Positions 1 to 61,877 of a DNA stretch of 64,000 bases are shown one piece after another. Source of the DNA: Ginglymostoma cirratum (Eukaryota); the NCBI GenBank assembly GCA_024137785.1, contig JAHRHZ010000032.1, positions 5,379,993 to 5,443,992 of the forward strand. The letters run 5' to 3'. Each line of letters opens with the position of its first letter. Within the stretch, counting starts at the first letter, position 1. Below the pieces are notes generated by a model, which ran no database searches, had not been told where the DNA came from, and saw only the letters and a list, made by a program, of their open reading frames with translations. The position numbers and the translations under genes were made by a program.

Positions 1-448
1 GTACCATCTAGGACAAAAGCAGCCCAATTGATTGGTACCACAACCACAAACATTCACTTCTTCCACTACTGACGCTCAGTAGCAACAGAACCTATCTAAA
101 GGATGCACTGCAGCGATTCAGTAAGGCTCTTCAGACAGTACTTTTTAAACCCACACCCACTATTATAAGGGTTTAGGCCCGAAACGTCAAGTCTTCCTGC
201 TCCTATGCTGCTGCTTGACCTGCTGTGTTCATCCAGCCCCATGCTTGTTATCCCACTACTATCTGGAAGTTTTGGGGTAGTAGACACATGCTAACACCAC
301 CGTTTCCGAACTGCTCATCACCCTGACCTGGAAATATATCGCCATTCCTTTAGTGTTGCGGGTCAAAACCCTGGAACCCTCTCCCTAATGGCATTATGGG
401 GCCATATACAGCATGTGGACTACAGCTCACCATCTTCAAGGGTAACTA
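1..448 (+). mobile_element. 3' part of the same LINE family; its tail resumes at about 2506-2562 after a CR1 insertion
   Basis: Homologous to 49560-49980; broken at aagggtaacta and continuing as gtgatgggcaataaatgctg at about 2508. Confidence 0.75.
167..251 (+). mobile_element. 5'-truncated Penelope-like fragment (half hammerhead core)
   Basis: TSD cccactattat / cccactactat (156-166, 252-262); nearly identical to 3414-3499. Confidence 0.75.
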
Positions 449-2505
449 CTGAATTCTAAGGAACTCTTGGACAGAGATAACAGCAGTCCTCACGTGAAGG
501 TGTTAAATTGGGGGTGGGGACAAACTACAACAATATTAAGGGTGAACTGGGAGAATATTGATTGGAGGCAGCTCTTGGAGGGTAAATCTACAGACATAAG
601 AGAGTATTTCAAACAGCAGTTGTTCAGGAGCAGCACATTCCTGCAAGAAGGAAGGACAGGTATGGCAAGTTACAATAAACCTTGGATGATCAGGGATGTT
701 ATGATCTTGGTCAATAAGAAAAAGGAAGCATAAGTAAGGATGGGAACTGAAAGCCCACGAAGTACAGAAGGAAAGTAGGAAAGAACTTAAACAAGGAATT
801 AGAAGGGCTAAAAATGGTCATGAAAAGCTGTTAGCAAACAGGATTAATGAGAATCCCAAGGCTTTTTAATACATATATAAAAAAGGAAGAGGGTAGCCAG
901 GGAAAGGGTTGACCCACTGAAAGACAACAGGAGGGAATCTATATGGTCGAGCCATAAGAGGTAGGTCCTAAACAAATACTTTGTGTCCGTATTCAAAGAG
1001 AAAGAATCAATGCAGGATGATCCCAGGGAAGGGAGTGTCGAGTTTCTAAGCCAAGTTGCTATTAAAAAGGAAGAGGTGTTATGCATCTTAAAAACTAAGT
1101 CCCCACACCTGATGGGATCTATCCCAGAATATTGAGGGAGGCAAGAGAACAAACTGCTGGAGCATTAACAGACATCTTTGTTTCTTATTTAGCCACAGGT
1201 TAAGTCCCAGAGGATTGGAGAATAGCCAATGTTATCCCATTGTTTAAGAAGGGTAACAGGGATAATACTGGAAATCAAAGGCCTGTGGGAATCAGATGTT
1301 GGCAGTAGGGAAAAGATCCATACGCACTTAGAAGCAAATAGACTCATTAGCGATGGACAGCTTGGTTTTGTGCAGGGGAGGTTGTGCCTCATTAACTTTG
1401 AAATCTTGAGGTGGTGATGAAGGTGATTGATGCAGGAAAAGCAGTTGATGTTGTCTAAACGGACTTCAGTAAAGCCTTTGACAAGGTCCCTCACGGCAGA
1501 GGGGTACAAAAAGGTGAAGGCACATGGTATCGTGGTGAGCTGGCAAGATGGATACAGAACTAGCTCAGTCATAGGAGACTGAGTGTAGCAGCGGAAAGAT
1601 GCTTTTCAGAATGGAAGGTTGTGACTACTGGTGTTCATAATCGTGACTGAAAACGTGACTGGTCTAATTAGCAAGTTTGTGGATGATAAAGATTGGTGGA
1701 GTTGCGAATAGTGCGCAGGATTGTCAGAGGATACAGCAGGATATAGATCAGTTAGAGGCATGGGCAAAAACATTGGCAGATGGACTTCAATTCGGACAAA
1801 TGTGAAGGTGATGCATTTTGGAAGGTCAAGTACAGGTAGAAATTATACAGTGGATGGCAGCACCCTTTCAGTAAGGATACACAGAGGGATCCGTGTGTGC
1901 AGGTCCACAGATCACTGAAGGTGGTAGCACAGGTTGAGAATGTAGTAGAAAGGCTTATGGCATGCTTGCCTTCATTGGAAAGGGCATTGAATATAAAAGG
2001 ATAGACAAGTTGTGCTGCAGCTTTACAGAACCTTTGGTTAGGTCATACTTGGAATATTGCACACAGTTCTGGTCACCAGACTAGCAGAAAGATGTGGATG
2101 CTTTGGAGAGGTCACAGGAAAGGTTCGCCAGAATGTTATCTGGTATGGGGGATTTTAGCTATGAAGGAGGGTTGGACAGACCACGTTTTGTTTTCCCTAG
2201 GGCTGAGGGGCTAATTACAAGGGGACACAGGTTCAAGGTGCCGTATCGTTTCAAAGAGATGTGCAAGGCATTATTTGTTTTTTTACTCAAAGGGTGGCGA
2301 GCGCCTGGAACGTGTTGCCAGAGGTGAAGGTGGAAGCAGACCATAAGAGCATTCGAGCAGCACTTAGACCAATACTTGAATAGGAGGGGATTAGAAGGAT
2401 GCAGAGTCTGTAAACAAAGACAATTTTAGTATGGAAAGACAAAATGTGTCAGTGCAGGCTTGGAGGGCTGAAGGGCCTGTTCCAGTCCTGTATTGTTCTT
2501 TGTTC
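449..2505 (+). mobile_element. Decayed CR1 (HER1-like) LINE, ORF2 remnants and 3' tail
   Basis: NKPWM, GFVQGRLCL, DFSKAFDKV, VMHFGR and LEYCxQFW remnants with frameshifts; ends gggcctgtt...ttctttgttct. Confidence 0.88.
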
Positions 2506-2988
2506 TAGTGATGGGCAATAAATGCTGCCCTAACCAGCGACGCTCATGACACGAATTAATTCAAAACGTCAAGCCAGAGACAGTTTCAAAAAAAAGGAAT
2601 ATTGGATTAAAAGTAAAAAAGGGGAAAAAAGTTTTTTAAACTTGTTTTTAAAATATCCAACCATTAAAACCTGAATAAGTGCAACTTTTTCGGTGTTGGT
2701 GTTTCATTGTGAAACATTAACTACTTATCAATTTCTTTTAAAAAAAGTGTTGGCAATTAATACAGTATGTCAAAGTACATGTGGAATTCAAAATGCTCAA
2801 AAATAGACTCTTGCTTCACTTCAGACAAATTTTAACTTGCTGCGGTGCGATTAGTTTGTGTCTAGATCAAAAGTAAAGATGCTGCTCACTGCATTGCAGT
2901 GGGGAGCTAAGTAAAATGATGCTATTCTCATGACACGCATGGGGCTGGATGAACACAGCAGGTCAAGCAGCATCGTAGGAGCAGGAAA

Positions 2989-3388
2989 NNNNNNNNNNNN
3001 NNNNNNNNNNNNNNNNNNNNNNNNNNNNNNNNNNNNNNNNNNNNNNNNNNNNNNNNNNNNNNNNNNNNNNNNNNNNNNNNNNNNNNNNNNNNNNNNNNNN
3101 NNNNNNNNNNNNNNNNNNNNNNNNNNNNNNNNNNNNNNNNNNNNNNNNNNNNNNNNNNNNNNNNNNNNNNNNNNNNNNNNNNNNNNNNNNNNNNNNNNNN
3201 NNNNNNNNNNNNNNNNNNNNNNNNNNNNNNNNNNNNNNNNNNNNNNNNNNNNNNNNNNNNNNNNNNNNNNNNNNNNNNNNNNNNNNNNNNNNNNNNNNNN
3301 NNNNNNNNNNNNNNNNNNNNNNNNNNNNNNNNNNNNNNNNNNNNNNNNNNNNNNNNNNNNNNNNNNNNNNNNNNNNNNNNNNNNNNNN
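2989..3388. other. Assembly gap (400 N) inside a palindromic insertion
   Basis: Run of N; both flanks belong to one TSD-bounded inverted-repeat element. Confidence 0.99.
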
Positions 3389-3403: not shown

Positions 3404-3439
3404 TTTTCTGATGAAGGGTTTAGGCCCGAAACGTCAAGG
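3404..3439 (+). ncRNA. Minimal type I hammerhead ribozyme motif
   Basis: uuuu CUGAUGA A GGGU-UUAG-GCCC GAAACGUC aagg: intact core, 4-bp stem II, palindromic ACGU stem III, weak stem I. Confidence 0.7.
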
Positions 3440-4264
3440 TTTCCTGCTCCTACGATGCTGCTTGACCTGCTGTGTTCATCCAGCCCCATGCTTGTTATCT
3501 CGGATTCTCCAGCATCTGCAGTACCTTTTATCTCTATTCTCATGACACTATAGGTCAGCCACCTCAGATAGCTACTCTGAGATTTCAGTGTTCAAGGTTG
3601 CAACAACTTTTGCCTCAAGTTGTTGTAGCATGTGTACATAAATAAGGGAGGGTTCTGGCTATCATGTTAATATTGCAATGAAGCCAACTCTCATCACTGT
3701 TGTGCTAAACTAAGGTGTTGCTAAACTTGAAGCCCATATATGGTTTTATACATTTTGCATTAGCAGAAAGGTTATTTTTGAAAGATTAAGGAGGTGTATA
3801 TTCTGAAAGCTACAAACAAAAACATAAAAATGCACAATGAACTTTACCAACTATAGTAATTAACAGGGCTCAAACAGATTACATAGTGAGTTTAATTGCT
3901 CCTGCGCAAGATCAAATCAAAGTCAAATGCTTCAGTAAAAACTTCAAATGTCATTGCAGCACCCTGCCTATTGATTCCAAGTGAAACAATAGAATAAAAT
4001 TCAAATAGAAGAAGTTCTTTGAATGGAGTTTCATTTTAGAAAATTATACAAGAGGGAAGCAGCTTTAGAAATACCACAAACAGGTGGAACTGCCGCTCAC
4101 TCTAAAGCAGAATCTTAAATGACCTTTGTTTCAAAGTTTTACCAGGGTGGGGGATGGGGTGAATTATACAGGGGGAAAATTTAATTCCAAAAAGTCTTTC
4201 CATATTCTACTCCACTGGAGTAGGATGCATTAATGGCTATCATCGGAGGGCAGTCAAGAAAAAC

Positions 4265-4565
4265 ACTTTAATGTCATAAAATCCCAAAGCATTTTACAGG
4301 AGCATTCTAAAACAAAATGACTCAGCCACGTAAAACAGATTAGGTTGGATGATCGAAAACCTGCCTCCAACGCTCAGTTTAAGGTGTTTTCAAAAGTGAA
4401 AGAAAGGTAGAGACACAGCAATAAAGAGAGAATTCCAGAACTTGGAGCTTATATTCAACTCGAGGCACAGCCATGAATTATAGACCAATTAAAATCAGGA
4501 ATGTTTAAACTGCCAGAGTTTAGGAACACAAACATATTTAGAGGGTTGTGGAGATTATAGAGAAA
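4265..4565 (-). mobile_element. L2 LINE 3' remnant
   Basis: tttaatgt...cccaaagcattttacagg...gagaattccagaacttgg; a similar shorter remnant lies at about 43075-43230. Confidence 0.45.
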
Positions 4566-5764: not shown

Positions 5765-6360
5765 GGACTCCCAACACAAGAAACTTGACACCATCCAGGA
5801 CAAAGCAGCCTGCTTAAGTGACACCACCTCCACAAGCATTCGCTTCCTCAACCACCAACACTTACAGTACATACTGCTCTTACTATCTTCAGGATGCATT
5901 GTAGAAATTCACCTAAGATCCTTAGACAGCGCCTTTCAAACCCACATCCACTTCCATCTAGAAGAAGGGCACAGATACAAGAAAACACCATCATCTACAA
6001 ATTCCCCTCCAAGCTACTCGACACCCTGAATTGGAAATATATTGCTATTCCTTCACTGTCCCTGGGTTAAAATCCTGGAATTCCCTCCTCAAGGAGGATC
6101 GTGGTCAACTTATAGCACATGGTGAGCTGCTGCTTTGAACCACTGCAGTCTGTCACCTTCTTGAGATCCAATTTGAACGAAAGATAAACCGCAATTAAAT
6201 AATTTATTTTTGTTCTTTTTGTAACTCAAAATGGCACCAAATTGTGGTGACAAAAAAACTTTTTAATGCCACATATCTAAGACGACACAGGTGAAATCAT
6301 TCATAACTACAGATGGGCAATAAATGCTGTCTCAGCTAGCAATATGTCCCACAAGTGAAC
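5765..6360 (+). mobile_element. 3' fragment of the tRNA-headed LINE family (interrupted at about 6125-6300)
   Basis: KKLDTIQDKAACL end of ORF2, 3' UTR and gggcaataaatgctg tail. Confidence 0.7.
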
Positions 6361-12744: not shown

Positions 12745-13100
12745 GGGAGGCGAAGGCCTTGTGGTATTATCGTTGGACTGTTAAATTGAGAGACGCTAAT
12801 AACATTCTGGGGACCTGGGTTCAAATCCCGCCACAGCAAATAGTGGAATTTGAATTTAATAAATATCTGGAATTAAGAATCTAATGACCACCCTGAATCC
12901 AGTGTCAATTGTTGGAAAAACCCATCTGGTTCACTAATGCCCTTTAGGAAGGAAACTGCCATCCTTACCTGGTCTGGCTTACATGTGACTCCAGACCCAC
13001 AGCAATGTGGTTGACTCTCAACTGCCCTCTGGGCAATAAATGCTGCCTAGCCAGTGATGCCTTCATCCCATGAATGAATTAAAGAAAAATGAATTAAAGA
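12745..13100 (+). mobile_element. tRNA-derived SINE, full length, sharing head/body and tail with the LINE at 46294-50040
   Basis: A-box-like start, B-box 12817-12829, body aaaacccatctggttcactaatg...cagacccacagcaatgtggttgactc, tail gggcaataaatgctg...catgaatgaat. Confidence 0.85.
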
Positions 13101-14514: not shown

Positions 14515-14828
14515 ATCAGTCAGATTCCCTACAGCGTGGAATCAGGCCATTCAGTCCACACCGACCCTCTGAAGAGCATCCCACTGTAACCCTGTATTTC
14601 CTACGGCTAAGCCACCTAGCCTGTACATTCCTGGACACTATGGGCAATTTAGCATGGTCAATCCACCTAACTGATATCTTTGGACTGTGGGAGGAAACTG
14701 GAGCACCTGGAGGAAACCCACACAGACACAGGGAGAATGTGCAGACTCCACACAGACAATTGCCTCATGGTGGAATTGACCCCAGCTCCCTGGCACTGAG
14801 GGGCAGTGGTGCTAACCACTGAGCCATT
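14515..14828 (-). mobile_element. HE1-like V-SINE
   Basis: V-domain sequence (gggcaatttagcatgg...tttggactgtgggaggaaac...cacagacacagggagaatgtgcag...ctccacacagac), tRNA head and CR1-type tail. Confidence 0.85.
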
Positions 14829-21251: not shown

Positions 21252-21391
21252 AAATAAGAGCCGAAAGAACTGCGGATACCGTAAATCAGAAACAAAAACG
21301 AAAGTTGCTGGAAAAGCTCAGCAGGTCTGGCAGCGTCTGTGAAGGAAAAAACAGCGTTAACGTTTCTGGTCCGGTGACACTGCTCCAGAAT
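21252..21391 (-). mobile_element. Penelope-like pLTR fragment, second subfamily, degenerate core
   Basis: 14-bp TSD with one mismatch, agggt(g/a)tctttatc (21238-21251, 21392-21405); homologous to 27202-27337. Confidence 0.75.
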
Positions 21392-21964
21392 AGGGTATCT
21401 TTATCTGCTGTCCAAATGCTTAAGGTAACAGAAAAGAACTAGGACCTGGGTAGAAAGATCAAAAAGATCCAACTGATGTTTATTAAACTCACCTGATATA
21501 AACAAATATTACGTGCACAAACACCCCCATATGCCTGGGCTCAAATTAAGCCATTTGGTCACAAGGAGCAGTATTCATCTATCAACGTCATTCTCAAGGA
21601 ACCTTACACCTTTATACTCTCAGGTCAGTTGATATTAGATAAAAAAGGAGCATATTTCTTACAAATACACTGATGTAATAACCCAACATTGCCTTGGATA
21701 CCAACATGTACAGTTGGTGTGCAATGGGCATGTCAATTTCTTCTGGGGATTTCTCTCTGGATTTAAGTGTGGGAATTTTAAATAGGCAAAAACGACAGGA
21801 CTAAAGTGTCACAGCAAATATGAACAATGTGGAAACTCAGCCTGCATGTAATCAGATAAGGCAATTTATACTATTCCCATCAGAAATGGTCCAGCTAATA
21901 GAACAATTAAAAGTTATCTTCCATTTGAGCTTTTCATTGAAACTATCTCAAGGCACAAGTCAGG

Positions 21965-22258
21965 GGTGTGATAAAATATTCCATTGTTCAGATATGTGCA
22001 ACTCCAACACTCAAGATTGACAGCACCTAAGACAAAGCATCCTGCTCCATTGGCACCATGCCCACAAATATCTCTGCTCTCCACACCACTACTCAGCAGC
22101 AGTGCACACTATCCACAAAATGCACCTCAAATTCACCAAGATTATTAGATAGCAGCTTCCAAACCCACGACCAAGTCCAACGAGAAGGACAAGGGCAGCA
22201 AATATATCGGAATGCCACCAGCTTCAAGTTCTCCTCTAAGCCACTCACCATCTTGACT
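21965..22258 (+). mobile_element. 3' fragment of the tRNA-headed LINE family
   Basis: Homologous to 49540-49840. Confidence 0.65.
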
Positions 22259-22259
22259 T

Positions 22260-22962: not shown

Positions 22963-25845
22963 ACAAAGAACGAAGAAAATTACAGCAAAGGAACAGGCCC
23001 ATTGGCCCTCCAAGCCTGCACCGACATGTTGCCCATCAGAACTAAAACCCCCTATCCTTCTGGAGACCATATCCCACTATTCCCATCATATTTGTGTATT
23101 TGTCAAGACGCCCTTTAAAAGTCACTATAGCATCTGCTTCCACTACCTCCCCGGCAGCAAGTTCCAGGCACCCGCCACCATCTATGTAAAAACAACTTGC
23201 CTCGTACATCACCTTTAAACCTTGCCCCAAATAACTGACTCTTCCACTCTGGGAGAAAGCTTCTAACTGTCCATGCCCTTCATAATCTTGTAGACCTCCA
23301 TCAGCTCACCCATCAACCTCCGTCGTTCCAATAAGAACAACAAGTTTCTCCAACTTCTCATCATGGCTAATGCCCTCCATACCAGGCAACATCCTGGTAA
23401 ATCTCCAAAGCCACCACATCTTTTTGGAAAGATGACGACCAGAATTGAACACACTATTCCAAATGCAGCCTAACTAAGGTTCTATTAGGGCTGTAACATT
23501 ACCTGCTAATTTTTTAAACTCAATGCCCTGGCTGATGAAGGCAAGCATGCCATATGCCTTGTTGACTACCTTTTCCACCTGCGTCACCACTTTCAGTGAC
23601 CTGTGTACCTCTGCCTATCAGTACTCTTAAGGTTTATGCCATTTACTGCATATTTTTCATTTAGATTAGACATTCCAAAATGTATTATCTCATCTTTCCA
23701 GATTAAATTCCATCTACTATCTCTTTGCCCAAATCACAGCCGATCCATGTCCAGCTATATCCTTTGACAGTCCTCATTGCTATCCGCAATTCTACCAACC
23801 TTTGTCATCGGCAAATTTACTAAATCAGGCCAGTCACATTTTCCTATGTAACAAATAGCAAAGGTCCCAACACTGATCCCCAAGGAACGCCACTAGTCAC
23901 AGCCCTCCATTCAGAAACGCACCTTTCCACTGCTACCCTCTGTCTTCTATGAATGAACCAGTTTTGTTTTTAATCCATCTTGCAAGCTCACCTCTGACCC
24001 CATGCGACTTTACCTTTTGTATCAGCCTACCATGAGGGACCTTGTCAAAGGCCTTACTGAAGGCTACGCAGACAACATCCACTGCCCTACCCTCATCGAT
24101 CATCTTCACTTCCTCAAAAAAACTCAAGTTAGTGAGACACGACCTGCCTTTCACAAAACCATGTTGCCTCTCGCTAATATGCCCACCGATTTCCAGGTGG
24201 GAGTAAATCCTGTCACCATTTATCCTCTCCAATAAAATTTCCCTACCACCAATGTAAGGCTCATCGGTCTGTAATTAGCTGGATTATCCTTGCCACCCTC
24301 CTTACATAAAGGAACGACATTGGCTATTCTCCAACCTCTGGGAACTCCCCTGTAGCCAGTGAGGATACAAAGATTTCCCTCAAGGCCCCAGAAATTTCCT
24401 GCCTTGCCTCTTTCAGTATTCTGGGGTATACCCTATCAGGCCTGGAGACTTGTCTACCTTAATGTTTTTCAAGACCCCCATTACCTCCTCCCTTTTGATC
24501 TCAACACGACCCAAACTATCTACACACCCTCCATGAGATTCATCATCCACCAAGTCCTTCTCTATGGTGAATACTGACGCAAAGTACTCATTTAATACCT
24601 TGCCCATTTCCTCTGGCTCCACACATAAATTCCCTTCCCCTGTCCCCAAGGGGGCCAACCTTCTCTCTGGCTACCCTCTTGCTCTTTATAGATGTACAAA
24701 AATCCTTGGAATTTTCTTTAATCCGGTTGGCCAATGACTTTTCATGATTCCTTGCTTAAGTTTCTTTCGACTTTCCTTGTCTTTCACCCTTGAGTCGTGC
24801 ATTCCCAGCCTTTTAGCATTGATATATGCTTCCTTTTTCTTTTTGATTAGGCTCATAATATCTGTCATTATCCAAGGTTCCCTGAACTTGCCATACTAAT
24901 CCTTCATCCTTATAGGAATGTGCTGGTCCTGAGTTCCCAGCAACTTACACTTGAAAGACTCCCACATACTAGATATTGATTCACCCTCAAACAACTGCCT
25001 CCAATCTACACTCTTCAGTTCCTGCCTAATATTGTTGTAATTAGCCTTTCCCCAATTTAGCACCTTCACCTAACAACTACACCTATTTTTAATCCATCAG
25101 TACCTTAAAGCTTACTGCTGAATTGTGATCACTGTTCCTGACCTGCTCCCCTGAGACGTTGACCGTCTGGCCAGGCTCATTCCCCCATACTAGGTCCAGC
25201 ACAGACCCTTTTCTAGTTGGACTATCTACATACTGTTTCAGGAAGCCCTCCTGGATGCTCCTTACAAATACTGCCCCATCGGTGCTCCAAGCACTTAAGT
25301 GAGTCCCAGTCAACATATGGAAAGTTAAAAATCACCCACGACAACACTTACTTTTACATCTTTTCAAAATCTGCCTACATATCTGTTCTTCTATCTCCTG
25401 CTGGCTGTTGGGAGGCCTGTAGTAAACCACAAACACTGATTGCACCCTTCCTGTTCCTGAGCTTTACCCATATTGCCTCGCTGTATGAGCCATCCGAGGT
25501 GTCCTCCCGCAGTACAGCTGCGATGTTCTCCTTAACAAGCAACACCCCTACCCCTTTTACATTCCCCTCTATCCCGACTGCAACATCTGTATCCTGGGAC
25601 ATTCAGCCGCCAATCCTGTCCCTCCCTTAACCAAGTCTCTGTAATAGCAACAACATCATAGTTCCAAGTACTAATCCAAGCTCTAAGTTCATCTGCCTTA
25701 CCTATCCTGTCACACTTCTTGCACTGAAACAGATGCACTTCAGTCCATCAGACCCACTTTGATCAGCGACCACACCCTGCCTGCTCTTCTTCTGAGTCTT
25801 ACTGGCCCTATTCTCTAGTTCCCGTTCCCTTTCAGTCAATTCAGT
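22963..25845 (-). mobile_element. Decayed CR1 LINE (endonuclease to 3' tail) nested in an older CR1
   Basis: ELRAWISTWNYDVVAITETWL, NSDHN, VLNEYFASVF, QHGFVKGRSCLTNL, AFSKAFDKVPHGRL; tail of the same family as 2450-2505. Confidence 0.9.
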
Positions 25846-26220: not shown

Positions 26221-27201
26221 TTATATCTCCACATGACAGCCACAGCTATTGCTTACCAGATGTTAAAGCATACAGATCAAAATTATGCAAATTGAAATAT
26301 GTTCCTCCCTAAAGTATATACAGTGATATATAGACCAGGTTTACAAACTAAACATTAACAGTGTGGCTATCCATCATCAGCCGTTCTACATTAAGCACTG
26401 TACTAAAGTTAGCCTGCAGACAGGTATCATCAAAAAAAATGTGTACAATCCCCACCTTCCTCCTGTTGGTTTCAGGAACCTGAATTCCAGAGTCAAAAAA
26501 CTTGCAGAGCCCAAAGGGTGTAAATTATTTCAGACCACCAAAGGAACTAATTTATAAAAGCAAATTTCTCTAGATTGTTGAAGTTGTATTAGACTAGCCC
26601 TCAAGACACAAAGAGAAAGCTACCTGAAAAGAACGATAAGAAACACGCAAAAAAAAAAGGGAGCAAGCAGAAAAATTGGATTAAAAATCAAATTTAATTG
26701 GTCCTTTCCGGAGAAATGCAGTAAGATGAGTAGCTATTTCTGTGCAGTGAATTCAATAATTCTACAGCTCTGCACAAGACACAACTGGGAATGTACACAT
26801 TAATTTATTAATGTATCACAAGGTTGGATTTAAGTGAAGAAAGAAACACTTGACACAATTGACTGCATCATTCTAGATACCAATTCTTCTACCAAATACC
26901 CTGCCATACAATAACCTTAATGCAGATGGGAATGTACTGCTGTCTGTCTGAAATTAAATAGGTCAGTATTCTTTAGAAAGCACATGCTATTTTCTGAAGC
27001 TGGCAACCATGATGCTGCTATACCATCCAGTAATGGCCAAACCACTTTTCCAGAATTATTTATCCATATAAACTACATAGAAACCAGACTGCAAGATCTT
27101 ATTTCGAATAACAGAAGAAAAACAGAACCAATTCAGAGTTAAAGATACTGCTTTCTGAAAGCTACTACGGTTAGTGTTGGTAAATAACAGCTTATCTTAA
27201 T

Positions 27202-27432
27202 AAAAACCGAAAGAAAGGCGGATGCTGTAAATCAGGAACAAAAACAGAAGTTGCTGGAAAAGCTCAGCAAGTCCGGCAGCATCTAAGAAGGAAAAAAACA
27301 GAGTTGACGTTTCGGGTGTGGTGACCCTTCCTCAGAACCCAGACCCGAAACATTAACTCTGTTTTTTTTAACCCCTTCACAGATGCTGCCGGGCCTGCTG
27401 AGCTTTTTCAGCAACTCCGGTTTTTGTTCCTG
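27202..27432 (-). mobile_element. Palindromic Penelope-like pLTR remnant, second subfamily
   Basis: Perfect 16-bp TSD aacagcttatcttaat (27186-27201, 27433-27448); inverted arms of about 85 bp. Confidence 0.8.
27301..27340 (-). ncRNA. Minimal type I hammerhead ribozyme motif, sense to PTGFRN pre-mRNA
   Basis: ggguu CUGAGGA A GGGU-CACCAC-ACCC GAAACGUC aacuc: intact core with a 5-bp stem I. Confidence 0.72.
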
Positions 27433-27781
27433 AACAGCTTATCTTAATCCAGTTACACTACCTTAGCTTTCTCAGTGGCCAGGGGAGGTTTTCATAATAA
27501 AAGTCATATTTTCATTACAATCAAACATTCTGTGAAAAGGTAAATGTTAAGCAATTCCTTGTGAATTGGTCAAGCAAACAAAGAAAGCTAATAGCCCTTG
27601 CATCTTTTGCAAGCAAAGTAGCAACAGTACACAGGTATTGACTTTCTCAGTTAATTTTCCCTACTGGCCCTTACACTTAAAAACAAACAGCTAGAATGAA
27701 CATTATAGATAGATATCATTACAGCAGATAGTTCAGCCTACAAAAAATTAAGAGTGAATGACACCAACCCCAATGATGTCT

Positions 27782-33058: not shown

Positions 33059-33210
33059 TAGCAAGGTGTAGAGCTGGATGAATGCAGCAGAAGGGTCCAG
33101 ATCCGAAACACCAGCTTTCCTCCTCCTCTGATGCTGCGTGGCCTGCTGCGCTCATCCAGCTCTACACCTTGTTATCTCAGACTCCAGCATCGGCAGTTCC
33201 TACTATCTCT
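33059..33210 (+). mobile_element. Penelope-like pLTR fragment with short inverted 5' end
   Basis: TSD gat(t/a)ttgcttcagt (33045-33058, 33211-33224); the first 28 nt or so are an inverted copy of 33143-33174. Confidence 0.75.
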
Positions 33211-33799
33211 GATATTGCTTCAGTCATGTGTTCTGCAAATTATGTATTAAAATATAAAATGTTACATGTTGTTGTGAAGGCTGTCTTTTAATTTTTGTTT
33301 TTAAGAAAGTAGAATGAAATGAAAACTGTTTTCAAAAGGAGGGTTGGAAAAGTTGGATGCAGTTTTGATAGTAAAGTAATCTAACACCCATGGCAGGTAA
33401 TTTTAACAACTGCTTGAACCAATAGTAATTGAAGTTCAGATTCCTAAATATTTGGAGGTGAGGGTGCCTACTGATTCAGTTGTTGGCTGCAGTTGTCAAT
33501 GATCGATCTCTTGCTTGCCAGCAACCGAGACTGGATCGAGGGTGGCTGAGCAGCTTGGAGCTGGAAACAAGTTACAAAGAGCTACCATTCAGAAGTATAA
33601 CTGACCAGTGAAAGAGACCAAACTGAGAGTGTCTCCTCCCAGTCCAGAAGCTACCTGCTCTCTGCAGTCAAAAAAATTCATTTTAAATGCTGAAAAACAC
33701 TTACTTTTCCTACAGCAGTTGCTGTGACTTTAAATTGATAAAATCAAGAGACATTTTCAAAATAATTTTTATTTTAAAAGAAGTCTTGACAGATGTGGG

Positions 33800-34145
33800 A
33801 TTGCTGGCTGGCCAGCATTTATTGTTTATCCCTTGTTGCCCTTGAGAAGGTTGATCCAAAATGCCCACAGGGAAGAAATTCCAAGATTTGACCCAGCAAC
33901 ATTGAAGGAAGGGTGATACATTTCCAAGTCAGGATAGTGAGTACTTGGAGGAAAACTTGCAGGTGGTGATGCTCCCATGTATCTGCTTCCCTGTCCTTCT
34001 CGATTACAGCAGTCATACGTTTGGAAGCTGCCTGCTAAATGATCTTTGAATTCCTGCAGTGTATCTTGTCGAAGATGCACACTGATACGACTAAGTGTTG
34101 GTGGTGGAGGGAGTGGATGCTTGTGGGTGTGGCAGCTATTAAGTG
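33800..34145 (-). mobile_element. 3' fragment of the tRNA-headed LINE family
   Basis: Reverse complement of the 3' UTR and tail (cagcatttattg...). Confidence 0.7.
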
Positions 34146-40459: not shown

Positions 40460-41985
40460 TAATTCATCTATGGGGTATGGGGCTCCCTGGTCAGGTCAAC
40501 ATTTATTGACTGTCCATAGTTGCCCTCAAGAAGGCAGTGATGAGCTGCCTTCTTGAATGACTGAAATCCATGTGCTGGTGGACCTGCAATGCTTTCAGGG
40601 TGGGGAGTTCCGGAATTCTGATCCAGTTACAGTGAAGGAATGGCAATACATTTCAAAGTCAGGATAGCGAGTGGCTCGAAGGCAAGTGGTGGTGTTCCCA
40701 CATATCTGCTGCCCTTATCTTTAAATGGCAGCAGTTGTGGGTTTGAAAGGTGCTATCTAAGGATCTTTGGTGAATTCCTACAGTGCATTTTGCAGATGAT
40801 ATTCACTTGCTGTATGTCAGTACAGAGAGTGAACTTTCCTGATGCCAAACAGGCAGGCCGTTTTGACCTGGATGATGTCAAGCTTTGATTGTTGCCGGAG
40901 CTGCTTTTGTCGAGGTAATGGAATACTTCTCCTGTCCAAACTATGCCTTGACGATGGACAGGTTTTGGGGAGCCAGGAGGAGAGTCACTCACTGCAGGAT
41001 TCCTATACCTTCTGACTTACACTTGAAGCCATAGTATTTATAAGGCAAGTCCAGTTCAGTTTCTGGTCAATGGTAACCTCTCAGTGTTGATAGTGGGGGA
41101 AATCTAGTGATGGTAATGTCATTGAATGTCAAGGGGCGGAGGTTAATTTCTCTCTTGTTGGCAATGGCTTGTAGCACAAATGGTACTTGCTACTTCTCAG
41201 TCCAAACCTGAATATTGTCCAGACTTACTGCATTTGGACTCGCAACATTTCTGTATTTGACAAGTCGCAAATGGCACTGAATATCATGCAATCCTCAGCA
41301 ACCATTTCTACTTTTGACATTATGTTGAAGGGAAGGGCATGGATGAAGCAACTGAAGATGATTCTATCTAGAATATTATACTGACAACTATGGGACTCTT
41401 GGGGTGGAGAAATCGCATCCCTACCTTGGAACCTGGAGACCCAATTTCAAGAGCCACCTGTTTCAGAGGTGTGTAACAACATCTCTGAAAAGGTTGATTA
41501 GAAAATATCTGTAACTGAGGAACTCCTGTAAGGATATCCTGGAACTGAATTGACAGACCTCTCTTACTTTGCCAGGTGTAATTCCACCAGTGGAAAACTT
41601 TGTCTAATTCCCATTGACTTCAGTTCTGCTCGAGCTCCTATAGGCAAAGGCAGCTGCTCTGATCACACTTCTGACGTTCAGCTCTTCTGCCTATGTTCAA
41701 ACTAAGCTTGACACCATCCAGGCTAGAACAACCTGCTGCAACGAGCAGCCAAGTAGCCCTGGTACTGGAACTCAAACTGAGCAGTGAACAGGTTATTTCT
41801 AAGCAAGTGCTGCTTGATAGGACTGACAATCCCTTTTACCACTTTATTGCCGAGTAGATAGATGGTACAGCAATGTGTGTTAAATTTGTCCTTTTTGTGT
41901 ACAGGATATACCTGGACAAATTTACTGCATTCTGAGGTAGATGCCAGCATTGTAGCTGTACCAGAACAACCTGTCTAGGGGGGCC
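40460..41985 (-). mobile_element. Decayed RT/3' portion of the tRNA-headed LINE family
   Basis: VYPVHKKDK remnant, end of ORF2 and 3' UTR homologous to 49100-50030. Confidence 0.75.
41392..41510 (+). mobile_element. Short (about 120 bp) tRNA-derived SINE nested in a LINE
   Basis: Homologous to the reverse complement of 56686-56800; ends ggttgattagaaaatatc. Confidence 0.65.
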
Positions 41986-42831: not shown

Positions 42832-42963
42832 AACGTTTCGGGTCCGGTGACCCCAAAACATTAACTCTGAAGGGAAAAACACAAATGCTGCCAGACCTGC
42901 TGAGCTTTTCCAGCAACTTTGTTTTTGTTCGTGATTTACAGCATCCAATGTTCTTTTGGTTTT
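42832..42963 (+). mobile_element. Penelope-like pLTR fragment, second subfamily, short inverted 5' end
   Basis: Perfect 13-bp TSD taaaaacttaggt (42819-42831, 42964-42976). Confidence 0.75.
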
Positions 42964-44374
42964 TAAAAACTTAGGTGCGTGGGATAGAAAGTAACAGTTG
43001 AAATAAGGCAAAATTTCATTTTGGGCAATCGTCAATAGCTATTTTTGTTTTTTTGAGTCTTCAACATAAAGTTTAGAAAAGCATTTCACAGGAGCATTAC
43101 AAAGTTAAATTAGGCAACAAAGATAGGACTTGGGTATATAACTCAACACTTGACTGACAAGGTTGGTTTTAACAAAGAAGACAGGCAGAGATTTAGAGAT
43201 GAGACTTCCTAATTGAAAGGCAGGATAGGTCTGAAAACGCAACTGGTCTGCTGCTACATTGCTATTACCCCAAATCGCTTACAAGCCAAGAAAATTTGAG
43301 GGGTAAAAATCTACGACTAATTAACAACCAAAGGGTTTTGGTGAATGAATGGAAACAAAATTTCAGAACTTCAGCTTGGTCTTTAAATCTTACAAAGTGG
43401 ATACAATCTTTGGGCCGAAGTGACGGAATAATTTTGCCAATATGACGGTGTCCATTTGGAATAGAAGAATCAGCACGACAGGTCCAGAAGGAGAAGCCAG
43501 ATCAAAGTCAAAAACAAACCAGGAACAGCACAGTTGGAGGCAGCAAGTAAGCTCACACCAGATAGTGAAAGAAACTTGGGACAATTCTTTTTAAGGCTGC
43601 TTCTGAACTCCCTGTGGACCACAGTGGGAAATAGTCAATAGGGTGTTTTCCAGGTTGGCTATCAAGTGCCAGAGCATATAGGTTCTCTATCTTGGCAAAC
43701 TGCAATGGAAGATAACTATTCAACTTAAAATAAGTGAGTCTTGCAAAACACTGGGGGTGGGAAGGGGGTTAAACCCATCCACATGGGGCCTGCAGCTGAC
43801 GAGAACTTAGTTGGGCAGGTCTGCTTGACGCAGAGCTTGCATCCTGCCAGCAGAGAGCAACTGCCAGGCACTTAACACAATCCCCCCTTCCCTGCTGAAA
43901 TCTGAAGGAGAAAATCCAAATTAGTCTCCTTTAATTGCTCTGAGGCCCTTAATAAGCCATCCCGCGTCAAAGGCTGTTTGGAGCCATGGAAATTGCACAC
44001 CGGACAGGCTATTCTTAACTCCCACTGTTATTAGACTATATGCGAGAAAGGGGAAGGGATTATGTGGCTTCAAAATCAAGCCCTTAGTTAAAAAAGTGAA
44101 GGCCAATTGTTATGCCAGATTTTATTTCATTTCAGCATTAATGCCTAATACTATTTGACGTGTGGTAACAGGATTGTTACAAGATCAATACTGAAATTTT
44201 GTTGTGTGTCATCAGGATTACCAGTTGAGTAGTCAAAAAATAAAATTATGAAAAGATGAACTGGAATATTTTAGGTTGTGACTTAGGCCAACGCTGTAAA
44301 ATATATTACAACAAATCTAGTAATAAATTTTTTTTTTCTAAAAACCTAACCACAAGGTCAAGGTATCACAAAAC

Positions 44375-46293: not shown

Positions 46294-49200
46294 GGAGATG
46301 TTGGTGTAGTTGAAAGGCTTAGAGTTTGGGGCTCTGGGTTCAAATCCCACCGTGGCAGATGATGGAATTTTAAATTTAATTAATACTAAAGAAAGCAGCA
46401 AGCTTACTGGCGATCATTTAACCACTGTTCATTTCTGCAAAGAAAAATAAACTTCTGGTTCACCAATGTCCTCGTGGAATGAAAATCTGTTGTCCTTATC
46501 TGGTCTGGCCTACACATAATTGCAGACCCACAGAAATGTGGTTGACTTTCAACTGCCGACTGAAAATGCCCTAGCAAGCCATTCAGTTGTATCAAACCAC
46601 GACTAAGAGCAAATAAAGGAATGAAACCAAGAAGATCACCCAGTAATGACAGTCATCTTACCAAGATCTTGGGGCTTGTGCCAGAATTGGGACAGCTGTC
46701 CCACAGATTAAACAAGCAATAGCCTGAAGTTGTTTGTGAAGCATACGATTCTAAGAGAATTATTATGCGCTGGAAACTACTAAAATCATCCAAGCGTTTT
46801 TGTGTCCCACTAGCAGGGCAGACCCACAGGAGGTGGCAGCACAGCAGTACACAATCTGTGAGCCTTAACCTGTACTCCAGACACCATCGCGTCAGGTCAA
46901 ATATGGGCAAAGAGACCTCCAGCTGACAAATCAGTACTCCTCCATATTGAATACAGTCTGAAGGCATCCAAGTTAATGGTAATGGCACAGCATGTACTTT
47001 GGATGGGGAACTTCAAGGTCCATCACCAAGACTGGCTCAATAGCAACAGTGAGTTTGCAGAGCTGTAAAGAATATAGCAGGTAGACAGGTTCTGTGACAC
47101 GTGCTGAAGGGGCCAAGAGGGGAAAGTTCTTTTTGACCTCATCCTCACCAATCTATTTGCAGCAGATGCTTTCAGCCATGATAATGTTGGTAGGAATGGC
47201 CAGTGCACAGTTCTTGTGGAGATGGAGTTGCGTCTTAACATTGAGGACATTGACACACCATGGTGTGTCAACTATCAGCATGCCAAATAAGAAACTTCAA
47301 ACAGATCTAGCAATTCAAGTCTGGGCACCAATAAGGCACTGTGGATTATCAGCAGATGGTATTCAACCACATCTGTAACCTCATGGCCTAACACATGTCC
47401 AGCTTTTTCATTACCATCAAACCGAGCAGTCAATCTCAGTTAGAGGAATACTGCAGGAAGGAAAGCCAAAAGTAGCACCAGAATACTTAAAAGTGCAGTG
47501 TCAAACAGGTGACATGTGTCAAAACAGCAGAAGCAGTATGCAATAGACAAGGTAATATGATTCCACAACCAATGGATCAGACCTAAGCTCTGCAGTCTTG
47601 CCATATCCAGGTGTAAATGGTAGAGGACAGCTAACATGAGTTGGAGGCACCACAAGAATTCTCATCCTCAAAAGATGGGGGTGCCCATCATATTAATACA
47701 AAAGTCAAGAGTGAAATATTTGCATCTCTCATCAGCCAGAAGTTCTGAGTAGATGATCCATCATTTTCTCCTCCTGAGGTCCCTAACACAGAGATGCCAG
47801 TGTTCAGCCAATAATTCATTCTGCATGATATCAGGAAACAGCTGAGGCAATGGATAATGCAAAGACTGACAAAATCATGACAACAATACCAAAGAACCTT
47901 TTCTCCAGAAACAGCCACACCATTAGCTGAGCTGTTCCAGCAAAGCTGCAATACTAACCCCTACCCTGCTTCCTCTAAGCTTTGCCTCTGGGAGGGTCCG
48001 CACACACCAACTGGACTGTAGAAGCATACAAGCAATGACTCATAGTACTGAAAGCTTCTGCTGTGTACGGAATTTAGAAGGTAATGTAAAGACAGGAATG
48101 TTCAGAGCGAAAGCAGCTACTATCCAACAATTCTGCTCTCAATCATCAGCAAAATGATGGAATGATTCATTGATACAGCTATGAAGTAACACTTGCAAAA
48201 TAATAGTCTGGTCATTGGATTCTGCTAGGGCCACCCAGCATCTGATCTCATTACAACCTTGATCCATACATGGACAAAAAACAAGGGAGCTGAATTCCAG
48301 ACAGAAGTCAAGAGTGACTGCTTTCGGCATCAACTGAATTTGAGACACAGAGACTGAACAAAACTGGAGTCAATGGGAATAGAGGGGAAAATACTTCTTA
48401 GTCATGAGTCATAAGTAAAACAAACAGACAGTTGCAGATAACAAGGTGTAGAGCTGGATGAACACAGCAGGCCAGGCAGCATCAGAGGAACAGGAAAGCT
48501 GACGTTTCGGGTCTGGACCCTTCTGCAGAAATGGGAGAGGGGAAGGGGGCACGGTGATAGCAGGTAGATAGTGGAGCAGATAGGTGGGAGAAAAGACGGA
48601 CAGCTCAAGGAGGCAGGGTTGAAGCTAGTAAAGGTGAGTGTAATTAGGAAGTTGGGATGGGGGTTGGTCAGTGAGATGGGAGGAGTGGGTGGAGCACCTA
48701 TCCACACTTCCTGCCTCACTGACCAAGCCCCACCTCCACTTCCTACCTACACGCACCTTTACTAGCTTCATCCCTGCCTCCTTGAGCTGTCCATCTTTTC
48801 TCCCACCTATCTGCTCCACTATCTACCTGCTATCACCGTGCCCCCTCCCCCTCTCCCATTTCTGCAGAAGGGTCCAGACCCGAAACGTCAGCTTTCCTGT
48901 TCCTCTGATGCTGCCTGGCCAGCTCCACACCTTGTTAGCTCAGACTCCAGCATCAGCAGTTCCTACTTTCTGAGACAGTTTGCAGTCGTTGGAGGTCAAT
49001 CATCTCACCCCAAGGACATCACCATAAGCAGTGTCACTCAAGGTCATGAGCTAGTCCCAGCCATCATTAGTTGCTTCGTCAATTACACTCCCCTCATTAT
49101 ATGGTCTGAAGTAGGGATGTGCTTTGATGAATACACGACATTCAGAATGAGTACATCAAGACTCTCCAAATACTGAAGTAGTGCACGCCGAAATGCAGCA

Positions 49201-50040
49201 ATACCTGTACGACACCCAGACTTGGGCTCGTAAGTGCCAAGAAACATTTCTGCCACATGTGCCAGGCAATGGCCTTCTCAGAGAGAACCTAAACGTTGAT
49301 CCTTGATGTTCAATGGTATTAAAGTTGACGAATCTCCTATCAACATTCCAAGAGTCACCACGGACCAGAAACTGAACTGAATGAGCCATAGAAATACAGC
49401 GACTGCAAGACAGGTCAGCAGCTCAGAATACTGTGGCGAGTAACTCATCTCCTGTCTCTCCAAAACCTGTCTGTTATTTTCAAGACACAAGTCAAGAGTA
49501 AGATGGAATACTCTCTATTTGTCTGGATGGGTCCTTCTCCAAGGACATTCAAAAAGCTTGACACCATCCAAGACAAAGCAGCACTATTACTTGGCATCAA
49601 TCCACCACCTTCAGCATTCAGTTTCTTTCCCAGTTGACATGGAGGTGACAGTGACAGCAGTCCAGGCTACCAGATGGTAGCGTGTACCATCTACAAGGTG
49701 CACGACAGTAACTCAACAAGGTTCTTCTGGCAACATCTTCTAAACCTGCACTGCTACCAACTAGAAGGACAGGAGCAGCAGACGCACAGGAACACCATCA
49801 CCTAGAAGTTCCCTCCAAGCTAGTCACCATCTTGACCTGGGAACATATCACTGTTCCTTCACTGCTGCTGGATTAAAATCCTGGAATTCCCTTCCTAATG
49901 ATACTTGGGCATTTCTATACCCCAAGAACTGTCATAGCTTAAAATAGCAACTCACCACCATCTTCTCTAGAGCATTTAGGGGATGGGCAATAAATGCTGG
50001 CTGAGTCAACAATATCCATATCCCACGAATGAATAAAAAC
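46294..50040 (+). mobile_element. Near full-length decayed CR1-group LINE with tRNA/SINE-like 5' UTR and no visible ORF1
   Basis: B-box gggttcaaatccc at 46336-46348. Endonuclease start LTKILGLVPELGQLSHRL at 46657, MGNFKVHHQDWL at 47003, DLILTN near 47135. Decayed RT QGxxLxP and xDD motifs at about 49030-49135. 3' tail gggatgggcaataaatgctgg...gaatgaataaaaa. Confidence 0.75.
48438..48972. mobile_element. Long palindromic Penelope-like remnant (arms of about 250 bp) nested in a LINE
   Basis: TSD agacagttgcag / agacagtttgcag (48426-48437, 48973-48985); centre near 48697. The ORF track gives near-identical peptides on both strands. Both cores read CUGCAGA (mutant). Confidence 0.82.
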
Positions 50041-50052
50041 AAATTGATCTCC

Positions 50053-50150
50053 ATTTCTGAAGAAGGGTCTAGGCTCGAAACGTCAGCTTTCCTGCTCCTC
50101 TGATGCTGCTTGGCCTGCTGTGTTCATCCAGCTCTACACCTTGTTATCTC
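50053..50150 (+). mobile_element. Penelope-like pLTR fragment with hammerhead core at 50057-50084
   Basis: CUGAAGA A GGGU-CUAG-GCUC GAAACGUC followed by the family tail; no clear TSD. Confidence 0.72.
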
Positions 50151-50151
50151 C

Positions 50152-50385
50152 GATGACCTTACTATCGTTTTCATGTTGCCATTGCTATCCACAATCATAA
50201 AACTCTGGTTCACAAATATTCTTTGAGTGGAAATCTGCTGCCAGTATCTGATCTGGTTTATATCTGATTCCAGACCCACAGCAGATGCCTTCTAAAACGG
50301 TTTACCACTCAGTTCAAGGGCAATTAGGGATGGGCAATAAATGCTGGCCTTTCCAATGACTCCCATATTCTGTGAAAGAATAAAA
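50152..50385 (+). mobile_element. SINE variant with longer body (junction ccactcagtt|caagggcaattaggg)
   Basis: Body homologous to 46400-46590, then the LINE tail. Confidence 0.7.
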
Positions 50386-53855: not shown

Positions 53856-54319
53856 ACTGAAATTTAGTTGAACTGCTTGCTGACACCATGACACATGACA
53901 TAGACTATTTGAGTACCATGGTTAATTCCATCTGAGCTCAAACAGATAAATTAATACAGCATCAGTTCCCAAATTAATTGCATGTTTTTGCTTTCACTTC
54001 TCTACCTAGCAGAATTTGACTTTTACTCATATGGACACGATTCTTTCTATGTTACAATTTAGGTTTTTTAAAAAAAGAAATTATCTTTTTAACATCCTTC
54101 ACTAACTTGTAATTTATCAAAAGATCATTTTGCAGCCACCTTCTTTAAAAGGTGAAAAATACAAGTTGGTACAGCCTTTTTTTTTGCCTCAAACCTTTAA
54201 CACTAGGGGTTTAACTTTAATTTAACTCGCCCAGTAAGGAAGAACCACCATTTTTACATCATTGACTTTATTGGCATGTAAAAGCACATACTGAGGAAAA
54301 CAGTTTGTTGATCCAATCC

Positions 54320-54485
54320 GAGATAACAAAGCATGGGGCTGGATGAACACAGCAGGCCAAGCAGCATCATAGGAGCAGGAAAACTTGACGTTTCGGGCCT
54401 AGACCCTTCATCAGAAAGATGATGTTTTTGCATCAGAAAGCCTTGTTATCTCGGATTCTCCAGCATCTGCAGTACCTTTTACCTC
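54320..54485. mobile_element. Penelope-like pLTR remnant with inverted segment
   Basis: Perfect 14-bp TSD tgttgatccaatcc (54306-54319, 54486-54499); same subfamily as 2937-3533. Confidence 0.8.
54384..54417 (-). ncRNA. Minimal type I hammerhead ribozyme motif
   Basis: uuu CUGAUGA A GGGU-CUAG-GCCC GAAACGUC aag. Confidence 0.7.
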
Positions 54486-54649: not shown

Positions 54650-54860
54650 TGTCATCCCTTCACAGGATGTGGCAACATTGGCTAGACCAGTATTTATTAC
54701 CCATCCCTTAATTGCCCTTAAGAAGCTGCCTTTTTGAAATACTGCAGCCCCATTGGTGTAGCAATACCCACAGTGCTGTTAGGAAAGGGCTGTAGGATTT
54801 TAATCCAGTGACAGTGATGTATGGCTTGAAGGTGAACTTGCAGGTGGAGGTGGTGCCCAT
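54650..54860 (-). mobile_element. 3' tail fragment of the tRNA-headed LINE family
   Basis: atttattacccatcccttaattgccctt tail and adjacent 3' UTR. Confidence 0.65.
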
Positions 54861-56029: not shown

Positions 56030-56370
56030 CATTTATTCATTCATGAGATGTAAGACTAGCATTTATTGCCCACCACTAATTGCCCTTGAGAAAGACATGG
56101 TAAGCTGCCTCCTTGAACCCGCCAATGTCTTCTGGTTTACCCCCGTGTTGCTGTTGAGGGATTTCCAGGATTTTGATCCAGCAACAATGAAAGAGTAAAA
56201 TATTGTCCCAAATTATGATGATATATAACTCAGAAGGGAACTCGCAAGTGATGGTGTTTCCATACATTTACAGCTTCTTGAACATTGTTGGAGCTTTATC
56301 CATTCAAGCAAGCGGAAAGTATTCCATCACACTCTTTGTCAATGGTGGACAACAGCACCAGGCAAGATAT
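56030..56370 (-). mobile_element. 3' fragment of the tRNA-headed LINE family
   Basis: tttattcattcatgagatg...gcatttattgcccaccactaattgcccttgag. Confidence 0.7.
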
Positions 56371-61589: not shown

Positions 61590-61877
61590 ATAGAGTCTCT
61601 ACAGTGTGGAAACAAGCCCTTTGGCCCAAAAAGCCCACACTGACCCTCAGAGCACCCCACCCAGACCCATTACCCTTTCCCTGTAACCCATCTACACAAT
61701 CCTGAACACTATGGGCAATTTAGCATGGCCAATCAACCTATCTTGCATATCTTTGGACTGTGGAAGGAAACCCACGCAGACATGGGGAGAACATCCAAAC
61801 TCCACACAGACAGGCACCCAAGGGTGGAATTGAACCCAGGTTGCTAGTGCTGTGAGGCAGTAGTGCTAGCCACCATC
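61590..61877 (-). mobile_element. HE1-like V-SINE
   Basis: Homologous to 14515-14828. Confidence 0.85.

Follow-up and report, generated by a model that had tools for sequence, protein, structure and literature searches.

A tRNA-headed Zenon LINE of sharks and rays and its candidate transcription by RNA polymerase III

The LINE at 46294..50040 of the window (the whole 64,000-nt stretch of Ginglymostoma cirratum DNA analysed here) is a dead copy of an elasmobranch Zenon LINE, and the tRNA head with which it begins is the 5' end of the LINE family, a family-wide trait and not a chance insertion. The sense strand of the family consensus is also strongly depleted in T-runs, and we consider it probable from these sequence features that Zenon is here an autonomous LINE that RNA polymerase III (Pol III) transcribes. 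LINEs are capped Pol II mRNAs and SINEs are short Pol III RNAs, and an abundant shark and ray family coding for an endonuclease and reverse transcriptase (EN-RT) behind a tRNA promoter would break this rule. If true, this reading would supply an example from nature of a Pol III RNA that is translated, and would show how a deletion can turn a LINE into a SINE in one step.

The tRNA-like head as the 5' end of a Zenon family

The window copy lies on the plus strand. Its tRNA-like head (46294..46360), delimited by alignment to the SINE at 12745 and to the family consensus, contains a worn A-box-like stretch (46302-46312) and a B-box (46337-46347), and is followed by a body in common with the same SINE (46361..46558), whose conserved core (46450-46558) we take to be the V-domain. 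The collinearity of head and body with the SINE, noted in the preliminary description of this locus, was confirmed, with 46294-46557 aligning at 72% identity over 231 nt; this segment also aligns with further SINE copies of the window. Next come a hairpin with a 7-nt anticodon-like loop, CUAGCAA (46559..46586), and a leader coding for a basic N-terminal extension without an AUG (46587..46656), within which an out-of-frame AUG at 46621 opens a 35-codon upstream ORF (uORF) in the family. The remainder comprises a decayed APE endonuclease domain (46657..47220), a decayed and interrupted reverse transcriptase (RT) domain (48118..49330, the end being approximate, with the FADD-equivalent at 49120), and the TAG stop codon of the ORF together with the 3' tail common to the SINE (49977..50040), which ends in an A-rich tract. 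The stop codon falls within the SINE-type tail, which is confined to the 3' end, after the RT, as first described. The RT is interrupted by a later insertion foreign to the LINE (~48391..48984), consisting mostly of two Penelope-like 3' ends joined tail to tail in inverted orientation (48436-48984); this insertion is self-inverted at 48466-48924 with 92% identity, and its match to the tail of the Penelope consensus was made by eye.

At 76% identity to its consensus, the copy carries many stops and frameshifts as well as eight runs of four or more T, having lost ~30 nt between the A and B boxes and ~50 nt from the leader. The passage from SINE body to endonuclease is as originally reported, with the first endonuclease motif at ~46657-46670, but the spacing of 65 nt given for it is peculiar to this copy, as the leader deletions remove consensus positions 366-383 and 395-425; the spacing in the family is ~115 nt. 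The consensus itself is 3,288 nt long, with copies 87-95% identical, and has a perfect A box at 12 and a perfect B box at 75, a SINE core reaching to ~289 and the hairpin at 290-316. A single stop-to-stop EN-RT frame of 977 codons (consensus 295-3225) ends inside the tail, and endonuclease and RT domains were recognized on copies by Pfam (PF14529, PF03372, PF00078). There is no ORF1, the leader being 294 nt long and its longest upstream frames shorter than 40 codons.

The proposal that the head belongs to the LINE family as such was upheld by queries with the junction, the endonuclease and the RT. When the junction was used as query, 23 of the 29 other loci retrieved ran on from the SINE body into the endonuclease, L024 and L025 among them being near-duplicates. 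A query of endonuclease DNA alone recovered the SINE body at the expected spacing in 24 of 30 loci (the query being one of the 30), with the body displaced by insertions in three of the others and the remaining three 5'-truncated; the heads at these loci begin at a common point and their flanks are unrelated. For a query with the RT protein alone we took the first 40 of the 150 matches listed, not counting the query itself and a locus retrieved earlier. Eleven of the 40 extend to consensus position 24 or less and so reach the tRNA head, and the other 29 stop at scattered positions from 127 to 1842 (two at N gaps and one at the edge of the region). These copies are thus a 5'-truncation ladder that ends at the tRNA head, with 5' ends piling up at consensus positions 1-10, and none of these first 40 of the 150 listed matches revealed an alternative common 5' end, 5' UTR or ORF1 of the kind that had been named as a possible refutation. 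For 4 of 18 full-length copies, the sequences on either side fit together as one unbroken host repeat, so that head and body were inserted as one unit; among the same 18 copies, most of which carry an A-rich tract 3' of the tail, target-site duplications showed no excess over mismatched pairs. A chance SINE insertion followed by deletion at the window locus, which might be suspected given the poor preservation of this copy and the sequence it has in common with abundant SINEs, is as good as excluded by the recurrence of the identical junction at dozens of unrelated loci, by its presence in the published consensi of five species and by contigs that bridge it in three of four sequencing runs from differing organisms.

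On sequence grounds the family is the elasmobranch Zenon (CR1-Zenon) LINE of Stuart et al. 2026 (PMC13343379), with which it agrees in having one EN-RT frame, no ORF1 and an A-tail, and from which we found no difference in sequence. The first 400 nt of RhiTyp_Zenon-1 from that source are by eye nearly identical to ours letter for letter, with a total length of 3,293 nt as against 3,288 nt here. The same source describes Zenon as always lacking ORF1 and carrying a poly-A tail; the absence of ORF1, which had been presented as unusual, is therefore a known and universal Zenon trait. As judged by eye from the first 400 nt, all five shark and ray Zenon-1 consensi (RhiTyp, CarCar, ScyCan, SquAca and HypSab) begin with the tRNA head, and hagfish Zenon-1 and coelacanth Zenon have T-runs and no such head. 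Both the family and its missing ORF1 were thus known already; the head is present in the published consensi yet seems to go unremarked in the main text of PMC13343379, where the terms "tRNA" and "polymerase III" do not occur, and the avoidance of terminators and the missing AUG appear to be likewise unremarked there. In the open full-text literature that we searched, we came across no account of a shark LINE with a tRNA head or with transcription by Pol III.

At the protein level the family is 33-38% identical to full-length relatives versus 28% to the co-resident CR1 that served as control; with this identity and no ORF1, it is not a canonical CR1. The closest full-length relatives (P0001, P0003 and P0022, 37-38%) have a VLLTN start in common, and among the closest relatives are one cluster from the sponge Sycon and one contig of 3,280 nt. 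A comparison of two head-bearing subfamilies over ~450 codons gave a pN/pS of 0.26, which falls to 0.13 when CpG sites are removed. The EN-RT frame was therefore under purifying selection while bearing the head, and the head-bearing masters produced functional protein. None of the copies examined is intact, which means that the family may be extinct in this genome. Protein searches returned no intact shark ORF; there were 16 longer matches, mostly at 26-35% identity, and four matches of near-full length, which resemble gene-model chimeras. Fragments of Zenon, at 70-79% identity, also occur in the shark gene models P0008, P0014, P0060 and P0061, two of which are assigned to Heterodontus; these models are probably annotation chimeras.

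Avoidance of T-runs and the route of transcription

The consensus was examined for the TTTT terminators of Pol III, a check proposed in the preliminary description, and the result was as a Pol III transcript would require. The 3,288-nt sense strand contains no TTTT and only two TTT, compared with 13 A4, 11 C4 and 8 G4. When synonymous codons are permuted at constant usage, 11.5+-2.8 TTT are expected, and none of 3,000 shuffles was as low as the observed two. Phenylalanine codons are TTC rather than TTT in a ratio of 16:1, a codon ending in T2 never stands ahead of a T-starting codon where this would give T3 (0 of 23), and 5-mers with at least four T number 1 against 22+-6 expected. Taken by itself, the absence of TTTT does not reach significance in the most stringent shuffles (P 0.15-0.18); the signal lies in TTT and in near-terminators. 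The depletion was repeated in an independent consensus of the 40 loci from the RT query, an older subfamily has no T4 in 1,852 nt, and the five published shark and ray Zenon-1 consensi have, as judged by eye, no TTTT within their first 400 nt. The two control families from the same genome, neither of them an ORF1-less LINE, behave as expected by chance, with 34 TTT versus 36 expected and 14 T4 in 2,643 nt for CR1, and 15 TTT versus 13 expected for Penelope. If Pol III reads through the element, selection against T-runs on one strand would be expected over the full length of the coding frame.

In the model that we favor, TFIIIC and Pol III would start ~11 nt before the A box and read through the terminator-free 3.3-kb body, resulting in an uncapped RNA; the EN-RT protein would then attach in cis to the 3' tail and bring about insertion of the element by target-primed reverse transcription. 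To our knowledge, translated Pol III RNAs of 3.3 kb are not expected. The lack of ORF1 would be compatible with such a life cycle, as the RNAs of Pol III retroposons can do without ORF1p (PMC2666806). Alternatively, the head could be a captured SINE that acts as an ordinary Pol II 5' UTR or promoter, the avoidance of T-runs having some other cause (cryptic splicing or cleavage signals, or U-rich RNA sensing) or being a general Zenon trait. This accords with the assumption that LINEs are Pol II transcripts (PMC5786205), and with lepidopteran Zenon-derived 5' ends described without a Pol III promoter (PMC6740152). We nevertheless regard it as improbable, since the A and B boxes are, by eye, retained in the sharks and the ray alike despite changes in the stretch that separates them, and the depletion is strand-specific, specific to T and absent from both co-resident families; moreover, a capped and scanned RNA would encounter several upstream AUGs, none of them in frame.

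A coding frame without a start codon

The endonuclease has no in-frame AUG ahead of it. Not until codon 171, far inside the endonuclease, does the frame encode a Met, and the older subfamily has Val at this codon; in full-length relatives, by contrast, a Met stands 13-114 residues before the first EN motif in all 11 checked, taking the starts assigned by the gene caller. As a stop at consensus 292 closes the EN-RT frame upstream, production of the whole endonuclease from an in-frame AUG is impossible in the family consensus and a non-canonical start is required. For an uncapped RNA, this would have to be cap-independent, non-AUG translation.

One candidate for such a start is an anticodon-like pseudoknot at consensus 290-331 that would set the frame in the manner of an IRES, a possibility that we hold tentatively and at somewhat less than even confidence. 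The loop of the hairpin, CUAGCAA, is shaped like an anticodon loop and is able to base-pair with a GCUA 11-12 nt downstream (consensus 328, absent from the window copy), the GCU of which is in frame. The pairing comprises just 4 bp, is invariant and shows no covariation, and the pattern was recognized post hoc and arises in 1.7% of shuffles. In this genome mostly 18 or 21 nt separate GCU from the next anchor; the spacing is 18 or 21 nt in four of the five published consensi and 20 nt in SquAca_Zenon-1. Folding of the leader is weak (z -1.2 to -1.5; L077), Rfam returned no match to an IRES for the leader, and a listing of its helices contained no clear nested pseudoknots that might correspond to PKII or PKIII. 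The arrangement resembles the type 6 IGR IRES of dicistroviruses (PMC12221177, PMC10516663) in its possible helix-loop-helix, its anticodon-like loop, its linker of 11-12 nt and the pairing at the start of an AUG-less frame. It differs in the 4-bp length of the pairing, in an extension on the opposite side of the anticodon, and in the lack of an identified PKII/PKIII, of covariation and of an Rfam match, and we would therefore treat the resemblance as a lead to how the leader may work and not as membership of that class.

A second reading accepts transcription by Pol III and bears on the translation step alone. Here synthesis of the protein would begin at the conserved out-of-frame AUG at consensus 347 and then undergo a -1 frameshift, or would begin at a near-cognate codon, with no pseudoknot IRES involved. 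This AUG is kept in all five published Zenon-1 consensi and in both subfamilies, its 35-codon uORF stays open and contains a GGA-AAA/AAC stretch, and substitutions in the leader favor neither frame. We judge this reading rather unlikely, given that the candidate slippery site is imperfect, that no conserved stimulator was found, and that indels between GCU and AUG preserve the EN frame through the spacings given above; an uncapped RNA would, in addition, still require internal ribosome entry. The leader stretch at consensus 368-434 (window ~46640-46660, mostly deleted there) does not differ between subfamilies and scarcely differs between species, while variation is seen in the codons that precede it, and this conservation may reflect RNA structure or dual coding.

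The fullest form of our proposal, in which a protein-coding Pol III gene yields an uncapped 3.3-kb LINE RNA with a dicistrovirus-like, AUG-free IRES formed by the V-domain and the tRNA-mimicking pseudoknot, is rather unlikely. Should the IRES reading hold, the conserved V-domain of V-SINEs would serve to bind ribosomes, which would give a testable reason why the central domains of SINEs are conserved, and the function of conserved SINE bodies would become testable with simple reporters.

SINE derivatives, the origin of the head and other repeats of the window

The SINE on the plus strand at 12745..13089 consists of LINE consensus 3-293 joined to 3232-3288, and a worn longer form at 50197..50384, also on the plus strand, joins the body to ~318 with the tail at 3215. 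SINEs in this genome are generally head plus tail with several joints, the commonest being 293|3219 (7 of 16 joints found), with others at 293|3232, 314|3210, 332|3203 and 341|3162; the joint 318|3215 gave 28 exact pattern matches. Joints past 330 include coding leader, and the SINEs that carry them therefore arose from the LINE by deletion. A tRNA SINE is short and non-coding, which holds only for derivatives such as that at 12745 and not for the LINE, with its 3.3 kb and its coding frame.

We presume that the SINE and the LINE described here are the HE1 V-SINE and its partner HER1; neither Rfam nor ARAGORN called a tRNA in the head. HE1 and HER1 are listed for sharks and rays as a pair that share a tail (PMC3747384), and they match our elements in the tRNA head, the conserved body and a tail common to a CR1-group LINE; the difference is that our LINE has the complete head and body as well. 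In Lepidoptera, Zenon and its derivative, the SIDE Persaeus (PMC6740152), offer a parallel in a single-ORF Zenon of ~3.3 kb that repeatedly gave rise to head-plus-tail deletion derivatives; Persaeus differs in having neither tRNA homology nor a Pol III promoter. Small-RNA heads on LINE sequence are also found in the bipartite LINE-derived SINE bodies of Kojima 2018 (PMC5786205) and in Alu/tRNA-L1 chimeras (PMC13174262), and such joining is attributed to template switch or ligation (PMC5786205, PMC13174262). The products reported there are non-coding SINEs or mostly one-off insertions, whereas here the chimera is an amplifying, coding master. V-type SINEs occur far outside sharks, and in bivalves they use Zenon tails (PMC11481361). 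Because they extend beyond sharks and other Zenons are headless, capture of a SINE head by Zenon is the likeliest first step. Before the split of sharks and rays, a 5'-truncated Zenon probably acquired the head and body of an older V-SINE, and internal deletion since then has repeatedly produced head-plus-tail SINEs.

Several other repeats lie in the window. Worn 3' fragments of the same Zenon family are found at 5774-6117, 21945-22259, 33792-34130, 40462-41984 (minus strand), 54665-54817 and 56058-56334. A canonical CR1 stands directly after a Zenon 3' fragment (3-426 and 494-2500), and a SINE-type tail follows 3' of the CR1, which is therefore probably a nested insertion; a second CR1 occupies 23402-25069 on the minus strand. 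Fragments of Penelope-like 3' ends are present at 48391-48984, inside the LINE, and at 50051-50149, 167-252, 3405-3526, 33087-33208 and 54315-54417, and this Penelope-like family is young, its copies being 96-97% alike. A second, unrelated family of tRNA-type SINEs is represented at 14522-14819 and 61592-61873 (minus strand), as well as at ~4280-4560 of locus L068, and a short palindromic MITE-like repeat occurs at 27199-27433, 21253-21390 and 42880-42965.
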